64,000 nucleotides of DNA from the sequence record OQ939939; one strand, given 5' to 3'. Made by a program: the position numbers and the translations under genes. The notes beneath the pieces are model-generated. The model was not told where the DNA came from and searched no databases. It saw only the letters and a list, made by a program, of their open reading frames with translations. The first letter of the stretch is position 1. Each line of letters begins with the position of its first letter. Positions 1,620-26,797 of the stretch are shown piece by piece. This DNA is from Escherichia phage SUT_E1620.

Positions 1620-2276
1620 GTGGAAAAGTTTCTACAACTATTAACGGTACTGCTCCAAGAAGCGAAAGATCCAGCTTCGCTACTAAAACGTCTGCTAACT
1701 ATCTTAGTTGCTGTCATTATTTTCTTGTTTGTAAGTAACACTAGCGAGGTGATGTCATTTTTAAAGACTTTCTCCACGTCTGCGGTTTTACAGGATGTTC
1801 AAACCCAAAGGATAGATAACTTTCCTAATGTAGCACGAGAAAAGAGCATGGTTCTTTTCTCTCAGACGGGTGCGGATGCTGTTTTTGTAGTCAAGTATAA
1901 ACCCGATGCTATAAACGATTATTCGAACATTATTGCATGGGAAAGCAATGCGCAATTGGATAGGGCTGACTTGGCCGATAAAGCAGTAAACAAGACGTCT
2001 GAACTTTATAGACGTCACCTGGAAGGCTTTAACTACGCTTCGGATTTAAGTGTAAAAGTAAATAAGTATATGGGGTCAAATATACCCGCGTTTAAGAACG
2101 TTACTTTTAATTACGTCTACACTTGTCCGTATTTCAACCTAAATAATATCTATGCTGGATACATAGGTATTGCCTGGAAGGATAAACCCGTAGATACAGC
2201 TGACTCGGAACAATTTAATGAGTACTTAACAAAGCTTTGCTCACCGCAGCAAAGATCATTAGGTAGATCTATATGA
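1620..2276 (+). CDS. putative holin / lysis membrane protein
   Basis: 218 aa; GTG start with GAGGAGG SD; N-terminal hydrophobic helix; overlaps the start of the endolysin gene. Confidence 0.45.
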   Translation: MEKFLQLLTVLLQEAKDPASLLKRLLTILVAVIIFLFVSNTSEVMSFLKTFSTSAVLQDVQTQRIDNFPNVAREKSMVLFSQTGADAVFVVKYKPDAINDYSNIIAWESNAQLDRADLADKAVNKTSELYRRHLEGFNYASDLSVKVNKYMGSNIPAFKNVTFNYVYTCPYFNLNNIYAGYIGIAWKDKPVDTADSEQFNEYLTKLCSPQQRSLGRSI

Positions 2277-2686
2277 GTTTTAAATTTGGTAAAAATAGCG
2301 AAAAACAATTAGCAACTGTTAAGCCCGAGCTACAAAAGGTAGCTCGTAGGGCTTTAGAACTATCCCCATATGATTTCACAATCATACAGGGTATTCGTAC
2401 AGTAGCACAAAGTGCCCAAAATATTGCTAATGGTACTTCATTCTTGAAAGACCCTAGCAAAAGTAAGCATGTAACTGGAGACGCTATCGATTTTGCACCA
2501 TATATTAATGGTAAGATTGATTGGAAAGATCTGGAAGCATTTTGGGCTGTTAAGAAGGCTTTTGAACAAGCCGGTAAGGAACTTGGTGTCAAACTTCGTT
2601 TTGGTGCCGACTGGAATAGTTCTGGTGATTATCATGATGAGATCGATCGTGGTACTTACGATGGTGGTCACGTAGAATTAGTCTGA
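2273..2686 (+). CDS. endolysin, L-alanyl-D-glutamate peptidase (M15-type zinc peptidase)
   Basis: 137 aa; H-x6-D (HVTGDAID) and C-terminal DGGHVE zinc-ligand motifs; closely matches my memory of the T5 endolysin. Confidence 0.85.
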   Translation: MSFKFGKNSEKQLATVKPELQKVARRALELSPYDFTIIQGIRTVAQSAQNIANGTSFLKDPSKSKHVTGDAIDFAPYINGKIDWKDLEAFWAVKKAFEQAGKELGVKLRFGADWNSSGDYHDEIDRGTYDGGHVELV

Positions 2687-3253: not shown

Positions 3254-3661
3254 ATGTCAGATCGTTACTATACTCAGATGGCTAACCATTACAATATGGC
3301 TCCGTATGAATTGAACATCGCATTACGTGACCTCGATTCACCAGAGCGTGCAAAACTTGAGAAAAAGGCGGGAATTCGTATGTCTAGCAAGGGCAAGAAA
3401 CTTACTCGTATTGACTTAAATACCATGCTAATGGAAGAGCTTGGCGTGAATATTGAAGGTCAGAAGTTGCCTCTCAATGTTCTTGAAACGATGCTGGATA
3501 AAGTCAAAAAGAAAACCTATAAGAAAGTACAAGTACCGGAAGGCAGGCTAAAAGCCCCTTATCAGGCTGCTGTATCTGAGTGCTTAGGTGCTACCTTAGA
3601 TCTTAGCACTGCAACTGTTAAAGTGATGCGTGCGTTTTTAGAGGCAGTTAATAAATTGTGA
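3254..3661 (+). CDS. hypothetical protein
   Basis: 135 aa; SD GAGGAG; no recognised domain. Confidence 0.4.
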   Translation: MSDRYYTQMANHYNMAPYELNIALRDLDSPERAKLEKKAGIRMSSKGKKLTRIDLNTMLMEELGVNIEGQKLPLNVLETMLDKVKKKTYKKVQVPEGRLKAPYQAAVSECLGATLDLSTATVKVMRAFLEAVNKL

Positions 3662-4185
3662 TTACCCAAGAAAGATTGAAGGAACTTCTAGAGTACAATC
3701 CAGATACAGGGATATTTATATGGAAGAGCCGAAAGATAGATAGAAGTGGTTTTAACAAGCAATTCGCAGGAAAAGTTGCTGGCAATCCTCAAAATAACGG
3801 TTATATCAATATTACTGTTGATTCCGAAGTTCATGGGGCACATAGATTAGCTTTTCTTTACATGGAAGGCTATATGCCTGCAAGGGTAGACCACGAAAAC
3901 ATGGTTAGGTCTGATAACAAATGGCTTAACCTACGAGAAGCTACAGTCTCTCAAAATGGTGCTAATGCGTTAAAGTATTCGAACAATAGTTCTGGATATA
4001 AGAACGTATACTGGACAAAGAAAACGTGTAAATGGCAAGTACAGGTTATGAAAGAGGGTAAATCCTACTCGGGAGGATACTTCACAAACCTCAAAGATGC
4101 TGTAGAAACTGCCAATGAGTTAAGATTTGAATTATTTGGGGAATTTGCCCTATATGAACCATTTAAAGGAGATAAACATGAGTAA
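3658..4185 (+). CDS. HNH homing/nicking endonuclease
   Basis: 175 aa; HNH_3-like segment HGAHRLAFLY...VDHEN...DNKWLNLREAT...N; GTG start overlapping the upstream stop. Confidence 0.55.
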   Translation: MITQERLKELLEYNPDTGIFIWKSRKIDRSGFNKQFAGKVAGNPQNNGYINITVDSEVHGAHRLAFLYMEGYMPARVDHENMVRSDNKWLNLREATVSQNGANALKYSNNSSGYKNVYWTKKTCKWQVQVMKEGKSYSGGYFTNLKDAVETANELRFELFGEFALYEPFKGDKHE

Positions 4186-22956: not shown

Positions 22957-23691
22957 ATGAATAAAGCTATTATGAATATTTCCCGCAGCTTCCCGCATAT
23001 TTCCCGCGTCATGATTTGGGATTTAGACGGCACTATCGTTAATTCTTTCCATCGTGTAGCGCCTTGCTTTGATAGTGAGGGCAATTTAGATTTAAATAAG
23101 TATAAAAATGAAGCGTGTAAACATCATTTAATAATGCAAGATACTTTATTGCCATTGGTTGAATATATGCGCCAGTGCATGAATGACGCAAATACTTTAA
23201 ACATTATTTGCACCGCTCGACTGATGAGTAAGTCGGACTATTATTTCTTGCGCAAACAAGGCTTGCGCGGTCGTGGTAATAGTAATATCCGCGTATTTTC
23301 CCGCGACACACTGCATAAATATTTTAAAGCTGATAAGGTTAGCGAAATATACCACAGCAAAGACGCAGTATATAAATCTTATTATTTTGAATTATTTAAA
23401 CAGTTATATCCGAACGCTGATTTTACAATGATTGATGATCATAAAGGCGTACTATCAGCGGCGGCATCATACGGATTTAAAACGCTGGACGCCCAAGCCG
23501 TTAATGATATTCTATCAATCGGCGTGGCATTAATAGGTGAAACCTTTATTGATGAATCTCTCGACGATGATAATGATTATCAATTCCTAGCCGATCGTTT
23601 GAAATTATGTTGGGAAGGTATGACCGAAGAAGAACGCGCAGAATATAGTACCACACCGCAACAATTCATTGATAAATTAAAAGTTGCCTAA
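22957..23691 (+). CDS. dmp: HAD-family 5-prime-deoxyribonucleotidase (dmp-like)
   Basis: 244 aa; HAD motif I WDLDGTIVNS; SD ATGGAG; size matches my recollection of T5 dmp. Confidence 0.6.
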   Translation: MNKAIMNISRSFPHISRVMIWDLDGTIVNSFHRVAPCFDSEGNLDLNKYKNEACKHHLIMQDTLLPLVEYMRQCMNDANTLNIICTARLMSKSDYYFLRKQGLRGRGNSNIRVFSRDTLHKYFKADKVSEIYHSKDAVYKSYYFELFKQLYPNADFTMIDDHKGVLSAAASYGFKTLDAQAVNDILSIGVALIGETFIDESLDDDNDYQFLADRLKLCWEGMTEEERAEYSTTPQQFIDKLKVA

Positions 23692-23854
23692 CAATTAAAA
23701 ATAAAATAGTCACACTGTGTAATGATAACATGGTGTGACTATTAGCTTGCTAAGTAAGGGGGCGGTAATGAGACTCATTCTCATCTAGGGAACCTCTGGG
23801 CACACCTTCATGTGTAATCTTATGAGATTTCGAGAATTGGTAATTAGCGCTAAC

Positions 23855-24100
23855 TTAGGAGGAACACCGGTCTACTGGCTTGTCTCCTGATTCTGACATA
23901 CGAAATCTCCTCCGCGATGCCCGAGATCCATCCGACCACTCTCGCTCAAACTCCTCCCGTTTCTCCGCAAACTTCCGCTCCCTTTCCGAAAGCTCCCGCG
24001 ATACTCCCGCAATATATTCACGATGCTTATTAATCGCCCCGAGTGTTCCGAAGATTCCCACAAGCACCCCGATAATAAAGATAGCTACAAAGCTAAACAT
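23855..24100 (-). CDS. small membrane protein with charged C-terminal tail
   Basis: 81 aa; N-terminal TM; TAATG-coupled to the upstream small ORF. Confidence 0.4.
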   Translation of the reverse strand: MFSFVAIFIIGVLVGIFGTLGAINKHREYIAGVSRELSERERKFAEKREEFEREWSDGSRASRRRFRMSESGDKPVDRCSS

Positions 24101-24204
24101 TACTTGTCTCCCCGCAGCTTACGTTCAATACGAGCTAAGTGGTTATCTAAGATGCACTGCCCGATAATTACCACAACTAGTAAAGCAATAATTACTACTT
24201 CCAT
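24100..24204 (-). CDS. small membrane peptide (about 34 aa)
   Basis: hand-translated MEVVIIALLVVVIIGQCILDNHLARIERKLRGDK; TAATG overlaps at both ends. Confidence 0.3.
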   Translation of the reverse strand: MEVVIIALLVVVIIGQCILDNHLARIERKLRGDK

Positions 24205-24338
24205 TATAACCACCCCGCCATAGCCGCTAACCAAAAGAGTACAAAGATAAAGAATAACACAGTCCCGAATCCGAAACTATTTATCCAACTTTCGTACACT
24301 TCCCCGCGTCTGTTCTTTCTTCTGTTGTCGTCTGACAT
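24204..24338 (-). CDS. small tail-anchored membrane protein
   Basis: ATG at 24338 with CAGGAG SD (the track ORF extends to a GTG at 24389); C-terminal TM helix. Confidence 0.3.
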   Translation of the reverse strand: MSDDNRRKNRRGEVYESWINSFGFGTVLFFIFVLFWLAAMAGWL

Positions 24339-24591
24339 CTCTTTGCTTCTCCTGTAGTCCTGGTATTTGGAATATCCTAGCAATTGCACGAACCATTACG
24401 ACTGTCCCGATAAGATCCATTACTTCATCGAAGCCGGACTCTTCTAGCAAAAAGGATGTTCCCATCACATCTTCCATTGTATCTTCTATGACGTCTTGAA
24501 TGATTTCGTTAATTGCATCATGTATTGCTTTAGTCCTGGGATCTATTTCAAAGTTAACAGGTTCCTGAAAGGACTTTTCTTCATCTTGCAT
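24277..24591 (-). CDS. hypothetical acidic protein
   Basis: 104 aa; weak SD; overlaps the downstream small ORF. Confidence 0.3.
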   Translation of the reverse strand: MQDEEKSFQEPVNFEIDPRTKAIHDAINEIIQDVIEDTMEDVMGTSFLLEESGFDEVMDLIGTVVMVRAIARIFQIPGLQEKQRDVRRQQKKEQTRGSVRKLDK

Positions 24592-24665: not shown

Positions 24666-24932
24666 TTACAAGTGACCAGATTGTTCTAGTTTAAATTTGC
24701 AATCGCCATATTTGAGATCAAACTGTGACAAATCCCACCACCCAAACTTAGTGCGTAACTGAGTTTTAGGGAATCGGTAGCCCACAGTACGGGCTTCTCG
24801 AATATCTAAAGCATAGTGTTCTTCACCAACATGACCATAAGACTTCACATATGCCTTACAAAATGGCTCGGGAGCTGGTACACAACCCGTCAACACTACT
24901 GCTGCAACTACGATGGCTAGTAACTTTTTCAT
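24666..24932 (-). CDS. llp: small lipoprotein, candidate receptor-blocking (Llp-like) protein
   Basis: 88 aa; signal peptide with lipobox LTGC; SD AGAGGA; divergent from the adjacent large plus-strand gene, as for T5 llp/oad. Confidence 0.5.
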   Translation of the reverse strand: MKKLLAIVVAAVVLTGCVPAPEPFCKAYVKSYGHVGEEHYALDIREARTVGYRFPKTQLRTKFGWWDLSQFDLKYGDCKFKLEQSGHL

Positions 24933-25015
24933 AATCGTTCCTCTGTTTAATTTATAAATATATTATAGCAAAATAGAGGGATCTAAGCAAATACATTTTT
25001 AAAGAAGGAGATTGT

Positions 25016-26797
25016 ATGAGTTTTTTCGCAGGAAAATTTAGTGATGGTAAAACTGTATTATCGCTAAACGCTGCTAATGGTGGTGATATAAATCAGCACT
25101 ACTCTCCAAATACTAATAGTATCTTCCACTCAGATATGCCCTTCGTCCTAGTTGATGGGACTTATGAAGCGGCTCTAGGTGATGCAGGCAATGGGTATTT
25201 TGTTACTCAGATGCCTTGGGATATTATAAACATTAAATCCAATGATCCTGGTAGAGTTATACTAACTGCTATTGAGATAAACGGTACTCATCGTGGATTT
25301 CTGAATGGTACACAATCTCAGGTTGGCCAGTTCTTATCATTCTTTGAAGATCAACCACGTGCTGGTGCTGAACTGGCTATAACATCTGCTTTTGCAATCG
25401 GTGATAGTTTAGCTCACGGTACTTATATATATAATGGTGGTCTTGGTCATGAGGAATCTATTGCTAGGCAAGGAACTGGTGGTACTTTACTACAATCTTC
25501 CGGTTTCCAGATCTTTAGACCTGGTGGTGTTTCCGCAGGTGAAGCTATTTCCAGAGCCTGGGGATTAATGGGCTTTCCTACTGGTGTTTCTACTGTTCCT
25601 ATAGATGGTGGTAACGCCGATTATTGGGAACCTAACTGGCAAGCGCCTGTTGGTTCTGCTGGTAGAGGCCATGATTGGTTTTATGTTTGTAGTTCTAATA
25701 TTCGTGGCTTCGCAGGTAAAAAAGGCGTACTACCAGATAACGTAAACGTTCTTTACCAATCTCCTGCATATCCAGAAAAAATATATGTTTGTAGAGGTTC
25801 TACTTCTAATATGGCTGCTCAGTCCGCTAGAAAGGTATATGTACAGGACTGGTATAATGTTACGCCAACTAAGGTTATTTGGTATGTGCTAAATCTGCGC
25901 TATTCTAATGGTAGTATGGGAGTTTCTGGTAATCCATTTACCGGTTCAGATATCCTAATATCTCCATCTAACTTTACTATTAAAGGTGTTAGTTTACCAA
26001 ATACAGGATATAAATTCATTAACCAGAATGCCTTTGGAAACTTAGGCTATCGCCCTGATATGGAGTATGTTGGTAATAACGCTGCGTATACCGGAGTTTT
26101 TGGTGATAATACTGCACGATGTGAATTTATCGGCTCTAGTAATGGTGGGTTGTGGTCGCCCGTTAACTATGGGGGTGCAGCTTCCCAAATTAGCCTATAT
26201 AAATTTGGTGTAGGTAAACAATGGTATGTAGATACTAATACCAACTCCATTGGTAATGAACATGGACCTGTGTGGAGTCCTAGTACTGTACCCCTCAGGT
26301 TATTCCCAGGCAACGTTGCAAGTACTTATGTAGGGGACGATATAACTCCATCCTACCCTGGTGCTGGTGACTTCTACACACCTTTGGCCACTGTTTGGTT
26401 AGGATTACCTAATGCTCACTCTACCGTTATATTAACTACTGAAGTTATTATGGGTAATCTTAATACTGCTGGAATGCCTGTGCGTACTTATGGTGGTAGT
26501 GCTTGGCAGGTACAAGGTAGACGTCAACAAAGTTATACAGCTGGTGATGGTGTATTCCATCAGATTCTTACTCTGCCACCTGGCTATCTAGTACCTTATC
26601 ACAGTACAACTTCCTATAGTTATACACAAACTTGGGCTAGTAGGCCAAATGAGTTTGCTTTCCGTAGGAACGGATATATTTATACTATTAAAAACCTTGG
26701 TAATGGCAACGTTGAGTTGGGTGTTATCATTCACGCTGCAGAAGCGGCAGCTGTTTTCTTGCCAAGACTACGTGTAACAGTTCAACGCCTAACCTAA
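25016..26797 (+). CDS. putative receptor-binding tail protein (pb5-like by position)
   Basis: 593 aa; SD AAGGAG; sits between the lipoprotein and the terminase genes; Gly/Thr-rich. Confidence 0.45.

Follow-up and report, generated by a model that had tools for sequence, protein, structure and literature searches.

Three small predicted membrane proteins encoded behind llp in a T5-like phage: conserved genes in a variable set, with candidate roles at the inner membrane

Introduction

What do three very short reading frames, each encoding a single hydrophobic helix, contribute to a phage that carries them between its receptor-blocking gene and its terminal repeat? T5 is a classic model phage, and the four small genes behind its llp have for 30 years lacked a functional assignment; few non-structural genes at the host-recognition locus are as well conserved. 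We analysed the corresponding locus in a 64,000-nucleotide stretch of Escherichia phage SUT_E1620 (record OQ939939; hereinafter the window), where the three ORFs are designated o44, o34 and o81 by the length of their products. The original prediction for this locus described a translationally coupled trio beside an acidic protein, implying a small membrane complex co-expressed in fixed stoichiometry, and proposed a DNA-entry or exit channel component, superinfection exclusion or lysis timing as possible roles. Here we ask whether the ORFs are genes, whether their products belong together as one complex, and which of these roles best fits them.

Results

By its sequence, the window belongs to a T5-like phage, an Epseptimavirus. 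A 3-kb region around the cluster has matches in 446 phage records, the best of which are all T5-like (Demerecviridae, Markadamsvirinae), and its nucleotide identity to EscoHU1, faergetype and TrudiRoth is about 94%. In a comparison of gene order with the annotated TrudiRoth, EscoHU1, T5 and Sepoy genomes and record X75922, the cluster shares its strand with llp; llp and the receptor-binding protein gene lie upstream of it, and the terminal repeat and dmp downstream. The trio and the acidic ORF of the window are all on the minus strand, flanked on one side by the plus-strand dNMP phosphatase gene dmp (22957-23691), which lies inside the terminal repeat, and on the other by the plus-strand receptor-binding protein gene (25016-26797), which is divergent from llp. 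The terminal-repeat boundary, transferred from the EscoHU1 annotation, falls at about position 23801, 54 nt past the o81 stop codon. The llp gene (24666-24932, minus strand) encodes 88 aa with the lipobox LTGC and matches phrog_1119 (Cor/Llp, E = 1.2e-23) and Pfam LPAM_1; orthologues in relatives are annotated as receptor-blocking or superinfection-exclusion proteins, and its product is identified by these matches as a receptor-blocking outer-membrane lipoprotein.

The first small ORF, o44 (24204-24338, minus strand; 44 aa), starts at an ATG and encodes a basic N-terminal part with the invariant motif RGEVYxxWxN, followed by a C-terminal membrane helix. In o34 (24100-24204, minus strand; 34 aa) an N-terminal membrane helix precedes the conserved tail GQC.LDNHLARIE, and in o81 (23855-24100, minus strand; 81 aa) an N-terminal glycine-rich membrane helix, with G11, G15 and G18 invariant, leads into a long charged helix, the last 14 residues being variable. 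AF2 models o81 residues 2-71 as a single helix (pLDDT 63). Each protein thus has one hydrophobic helix, placed as originally described, with best 19-residue Kyte-Doolittle means of 2.33 for o44 (residues 22-40), 2.83 for o34 (residues 1-19) and 2.61 for o81 (residues 5-23). The TAATG stop-start overlaps were also correctly read: one base is common to the o44 stop and the o34 start, and likewise at the o34-o81 junction. The first ORF had been given as 44-61 aa; the 44-aa version holds, and the 61-aa version from GTG 24389 is unsupported because relatives start at the ATG, with AGGAG 10 nt upstream. Overlaps of 1 or 4 nt occur in 27 of the 86 same-strand neighbour pairs across the window, so coupling of the TAATG type is generic for this genome and not special to the cluster.

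Profile matches covering nearly the whole profile in each case show o44, o34 and o81 to be orthologues of T5.159 (phrog_8596, E = 2.4e-28), T5.160 (phrog_6369, E = 1.4e-23) and T5.162 (phrog_6447, E = 3.1e-46), respectively. The cluster is therefore already known, having been annotated in T5 since 1994: the T5 llp/oad/dmp record X75922 of that year enters the same ORFs as orf1, orf2 and orf4, and the T5 RefSeq record notes for each of the three that it 'contains single transmembrane domain', with T5.159 annotated at 42 aa. A literature search for T5.159-T5.162 by locus tag found no paper. The two phages agree in gene order and overlaps, in placing the cluster between llp on one side and the right terminal repeat on the other, and in one helix per protein. 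They differ in that T5 has an extra orf3 (T5.161, 64 aa, an N-terminal helix plus coiled coil) between its o34 and o81 orthologues, in that the acidic gene is intact in the window and only a remnant in T5, and in the variant formed by the last 14 residues of o81.

Are such short frames translated, or is the stretch from llp to the terminal repeat a non-coding spacer with chance ORFs? Their extreme shortness and the fact that o44 or o34 goes unannotated in several database records speak for the latter, to which we nonetheless give practically no chance of being right. Across 22-25 distinct sequences from 25 related loci plus the window, dN/dS calculated by the Nei-Gojobori method is 0.14 for o44, 0.17 for o34 and 0.37 for o81 (llp, for comparison, 0.22), and variable sites in all three are concentrated at third codon positions. 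Purifying selection, the absence of which had been named as grounds for rejecting the genes, is thus found on all three frames. Start codons, Shine-Dalgarno motifs and overlaps are invariant in 24 of 24 sequences (23 loci and the window), the PHROG matches are strong, and an Rfam search of the region gave no family match. This conservation analysis refutes the chance-ORF reading and shows, at the level of sequence evolution, that o44, o34 and o81 are real protein-coding genes.

Selection is not confined to the helices. The N-terminal part of o44 has a dN/dS of 0.11; within o81, the membrane helix has 0.29, residues 25-67 have 0.22, and the 14-residue tail, of which two unrelated variants occur among relatives, has 0.61. 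Conserved motifs include RGEVY..W.N..G.G and AAMAG in o44, and G11/G15/G18, HR.Y, RE..ERER.F.EK, FERE and GSRAS..RFR in o81. Since the polar parts are constrained as well as the helices, they probably make specific contacts. The window o81 carries the tail variant MSESGDKPVDRCSS; in several relatives (loci L005, L008-L010 and L012) an overlapping gene lies downstream of this variant, often an HNH gene. HNH homing-endonuclease genes are found in relatives at two sites, immediately after o81 and between the acidic gene and o44 (1934-2281 and 2743-3216 in L005, 1934-2281 in L006, 2743-3216 in L008 and L010, and 2679-3215 in L020); the window has none.

The signals read around the cluster show it to be the far end of an operon that would run from a sigma-70 promoter through llp, the acidic gene and the trio to a terminator. 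The promoter (24962-24990, minus strand) consists of TTGCTT, a 17-nt spacer and the extended -10 element TGc-TATAAT, and is divergent from the receptor-binding protein gene. In relatives, TTGCTT-N17-TATAAT likewise precedes the leading gene of the operon, be it llp as in T5 (annotated there as the llp promoter), the acidic gene as in H8 or o44 as in AAS21. At the other end, an intrinsic terminator (23697-23741, minus strand) is formed by the 9-bp stem TAGTCACAC/GTGTGACTA followed by TTTTATTTTT, and the 176-nt terminator region folds with -41 kcal/mol (z = -3.05). The hairpin lies inside the long terminal repeat and would therefore be present at both genome ends. We looked for an internal promoter common to relatives within the operon and found none; the cluster genes are probably co-transcribed.

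The title of Decker et al. (1994) calls Llp a lipoprotein that is expressed early, and from the common llp promoter, record annotation and paper text we infer early expression of o44, o34 and o81. Non-strand-specific RNA-seq of the Tequintavirus Bas33 at 20 min detects RNA over the cluster (genes bas33_0187-0192; PMC13250531, Dataset S01), with 137-462 TPM for the two cluster paralogues longer than a read, 127-219 TPM for llp and a low 13-22 TPM for the o81 orthologue (PMC13250531). Two cluster genes shorter than 150 nt are at about 1 TPM (PMC13250531), values that are uninformative because other genes below 150 nt are equally near-readless. Much of the unevenness of the Bas33 counts across the cluster, the low o81 value aside, is probably a read-assignment artefact. 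Co-expression as originally proposed is plausible, given one operon, conserved coupling junctions and the lack of an internal promoter; the stoichiometric complex that was to follow from it fares worse, as the comparison of relatives makes clear.

Homologues of the three proteins come from T5-like phages only. Relatives of o81 come from 424 phage records, from T5-like phages only, and form 43 protein clusters at at least 67% identity; an exhaustive HMMER search of 1.84 billion proteins with an o81 profile yielded no more than 5 representatives, all of the same family. The o44 gene is present in 447 phage records. In word-indexed searches with o81, o44 and the acidic protein, every protein returned was at least 56% identical, the named ones being from T5-like phages or Salmonella assemblies, and a pattern scan of IMG/VR with the o44 alignment revealed no new lineage. 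Searches of Pfam, NCBIfam and PADLOC found no characterised relative of the small proteins; matches to MotB_plug (E = 0.049) and LapA_dom (E = 0.02) were disregarded as sub-threshold and compositional.

Within this range the gene set changes. Phage S124 has o44, a T5.161-like gene and o81 and is missing o34, two related loci (L010 and L025, 2055-2210) have an extra 51-aa paralogue of o34 (BLASTP E = 3e-07), and T5.161 is present as an extra gene in many relatives. Judging from the extra helix-plus-coiled-coil genes and the o34 paralogue, gene duplication and gene loss appear to shape this locus. T5.161 itself (3559-3753 in locus L003) is fast-evolving, and EscoHU1 has a very different version.

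More distant T5-like phages retain still less of the trio. In two distant contigs (L029 and L030), o44 is the only member present, beside the receptor module, and unrelated tiny membrane peptides lie near it: one of 38 aa, overlapping and downstream, in one contig and one of 27 aa upstream in the other. Pantoea phage AAS21 (L031, 2064-2502) has no llp; its o44 is followed by three other tiny membrane peptides. Klebsiella Sugarland-like phages (L060, 3753-4436) lack o44 and encode two N-terminal-helix plus coiled-coil proteins at the equivalent position. Tiny membrane peptides or helix plus coiled-coil proteins thus recur between the receptor-binding gene and dmp in distant T5-like phages, and among the AAS21 and Klebsiella loci an o44 homologue is found only in AAS21. 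The similarity of a 74-aa Klebsiella protein to T5.161 is not significant, and we do not count it as a relative.

A gene set that varies in this way does not support an obligate or fixed three-part complex, and so does not support the stoichiometric three-protein membrane complex of the original prediction: o34 is absent from S124, and of the trio the distant contigs and AAS21 retain o44 alone. We conclude from this comparison that o44 is the conserved core, and o34, T5.161 and o81 exchangeable, lineage-specific partners. The cluster is the same beside receptor modules of the FhuA type (T5), the BtuB type (window) and the FepA type (H8, S124), which argues that its function is receptor-independent. 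At the position of the o44 orthologue, MW567727 (STWB21) and NC_047859 (SP01) have a feature labelled 'receptor-blocking (tail) protein', which looks like a mis-transfer from llp.

The acidic ORF (24277-24591, minus strand; phrog_16810) encodes 104 aa with 22 D+E and a net charge of -7. Its 62-nt overlap with o44 is in a different frame, with no TAATG junction, and its family is restricted to T5-like phages. The gene is intact in the window, EscoHU1 and STG2, with a pN/pS of about 0.17; TrudiRoth and SH9 have the same frameshift in it, locus L005 a truncated copy, and T5 and most Tequintaviruses a short remnant. Frameshifted or reduced to a remnant in so many relatives, it is no constant partner of the small membrane proteins and, by these comparisons, is an accessory gene in its own right. 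H8 and S124, which bind FepA, have no Llp lipoprotein; in them an orthologue is the only gene in the llp position (loci L006, 1497-1823, and L007, 1933-2244) and is labelled 'receptor blocking protein', a label that seems to rest on position only. The acidic protein has no signal peptide and no lipobox; its AF2 model is a helical hairpin (pLDDT 69), and a Foldseek search of that model against viral models returned its own orthologues only. As a separate possibility, it could be a non-lipoprotein blocker that acts from the cytoplasmic side and replaces Llp in H8 and S124. H8 requires TonB as well as FepA.

What, then, might the small proteins do? Judged from charge distribution only, all their polar parts would be cytoplasmic, with essentially no periplasmic domain: o44 would be N-in and tail-anchored, and o34 and o81 N-out and C-in. 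A place in the phage's DNA entry or exit channel, one of the roles first put forward, would agree with a membrane location and with nothing else that we see. Because the genes lie outside the first-entering terminal repeat, they are expressible only after complete entry of the genome, and participation in the phage's own DNA entry is unlikely; relatives differ in their gene sets; and T5.159-162 and llp all came out as 'Not Fit', without knock-down effect, in the CRISPRi-ART screen of T5. The screen is insensitive, and its result is weak evidence because many known essential T5 virion genes were also 'Not Fit'. Taken together, we regard a channel component as very improbable.

Lysis was another suggested role. 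The window encodes a T4-type holin (PF11031, E = 1e-114; 1620-2276, plus strand) whose gene overlaps that of an M15 peptidase endolysin (2273-2686, plus strand), 21 kb from the cluster, a layout shared by T5 and Sepoy. In Sepoy, an overlapping i-/o-spanin pair is also annotated beside dnk; by synteny, the spanin pair of T5-like phages is expected just before the window start. With the lysis cassette and the spanin pair of relatives elsewhere, the cluster is not core lysis machinery, and a core lysis function is unlikely. We rejected the trio as holins, as they are not encoded with the endolysin and the cassette is 21 kb away; o81 and o34 are small, with a membrane helix and a charged C-terminal tail as in holins, features that are not holin-specific. 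Also rejected were o81 as an i-spanin, since the Arg/Lys-rich tail behind its helix anchor and long helix is predicted to be cytoplasmic, and Llp as its o-spanin partner, Llp being a known receptor blocker and the Sepoy spanin pair lying elsewhere.

A subtler involvement would be that of antiholin-like regulators which time lysis through the phage's T4-type holin. In T4, the genes of the small antiholins RI and RIII are unlinked to the holin gene t; the phage proteins resemble these antiholins in being small, accessory and encoded at a distance from the lysis genes, in a genome with a T-type holin, and the glycine-rich helix and charged tail of o81 are found in many holins and antiholins. However, searches of Pfam, PHROGs and NCBIfam gave no similarity to RI, RIII or any holin family, a complete cassette lies 21 kb away with spanins elsewhere in relatives, and the operon is that of llp, called early-expressed in the literature. 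Moreover, o44, o34 and o81 are predicted to be membrane-anchored with cytoplasmic tails, unlike RI, which acts in the periplasm, and RIII, a soluble protein, and share no homology with either. We consider regulation of lysis timing quite unlikely.

The explanation that we prefer, and hold tentatively as one that may well be right without being the probable one, is that the small proteins are accessory inner-membrane factors in lytic conversion or superinfection exclusion, or otherwise modulate the inner membrane of the infected cell. They would be made together with Llp as dispensable factors and act at a receptor-independent step, for example by making the inner membrane harder, or impossible, for DNA to cross. 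In such a scheme o44 would be the core and o34, T5.161 and o81 partners gained by duplication and lost again, with no fixed three-part machine among o44, o34 and o81. An exclusion function fits the context of an llp operon adjoining the receptor-binding gene, and superinfection-exclusion genes have been placed at receptor-binding-protein loci in the phage literature. Against it, the proteins have no predicted periplasmic part to meet an incoming tail tip, their strong purifying selection is unlike that predicted for an arms race between competing phages, and Pfam, NCBIfam and PADLOC revealed no similarity to any characterised exclusion protein.

In a somewhat unlikely alternative, the proteins are host-takeover or membrane-homeostasis peptides unrelated to exclusion: single-helix regulators of a host inner-membrane transporter, a protease or a membrane-acting abortive-infection effector, or agents of membrane resealing after DNA transfer. 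A conserved host target would agree with the strong conservation of the proteins, their polar parts are predicted to be cytoplasmic, the PHROG of o81 has the category 'moron, auxiliary metabolic gene and host takeover', and AAS21 has o44 without any llp. Bacterial membrane proteins of 30-80 aa, such as AcrZ, MgrB and SgrT, act in this manner. The searches of PADLOC, Pfam and NCBIfam count against this alternative as well, having returned no match.

Discussion

Much of what is reported here re-describes annotated hypothetical genes. The additions are that o44 is the conserved core and its partners are exchangeable between lineages, and that the acidic gene is, by comparison of relatives, independent and occupies the llp position in FepA-binding phages. 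Should the small proteins act on the inner membrane in lytic conversion, they would bridge receptor blocking at the outer membrane and DNA passage through the inner membrane, a step still poorly understood for T5.

A more specific proposal, which we offer as speculative and rather improbable, is that o44, kept even in lineages without Llp, is a receptor-independent inner-membrane factor that closes or blocks the DNA channel formed by the tape-measure protein, with o34, T5.161 and o81 as exchangeable helpers. If this were true, the membrane would be resealed after the phage's own DNA transfer, or a second phage would be excluded at the inner membrane.

Among known systems, the Llp protein of T5 and BF23 (Cor/Llp) shares operon and promoter with the small proteins, likewise has no knock-down effect in T5, and acts on the envelope of the infected cell. 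Llp differs in having a signal peptide and lipobox, in its outer-membrane location and in changing with the receptor, none of which applies to o44, o34 or o81; a signal peptide with a lipobox cysteine is absent from these three and from the acidic protein and present in the neighbouring llp product. The Imm and Sp proteins of T4 and gp15 of HK97 are small dispensable membrane proteins that exclude superinfecting DNA in the infected or lysogenic cell. The likeness to them is one of analogy, in that small dispensable membrane proteins may be at work in both cases; there is no sequence similarity, and the phage proteins studied here differ in being almost without predicted periplasmic exposure. 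A further comparison is offered by AcrZ, MgrB, SgrT and KdpF, single-helix proteins of 30-80 aa that act by binding a larger membrane protein: no homology connects them to o44, o34 and o81, and what the two groups have in common is their small size and single helix.
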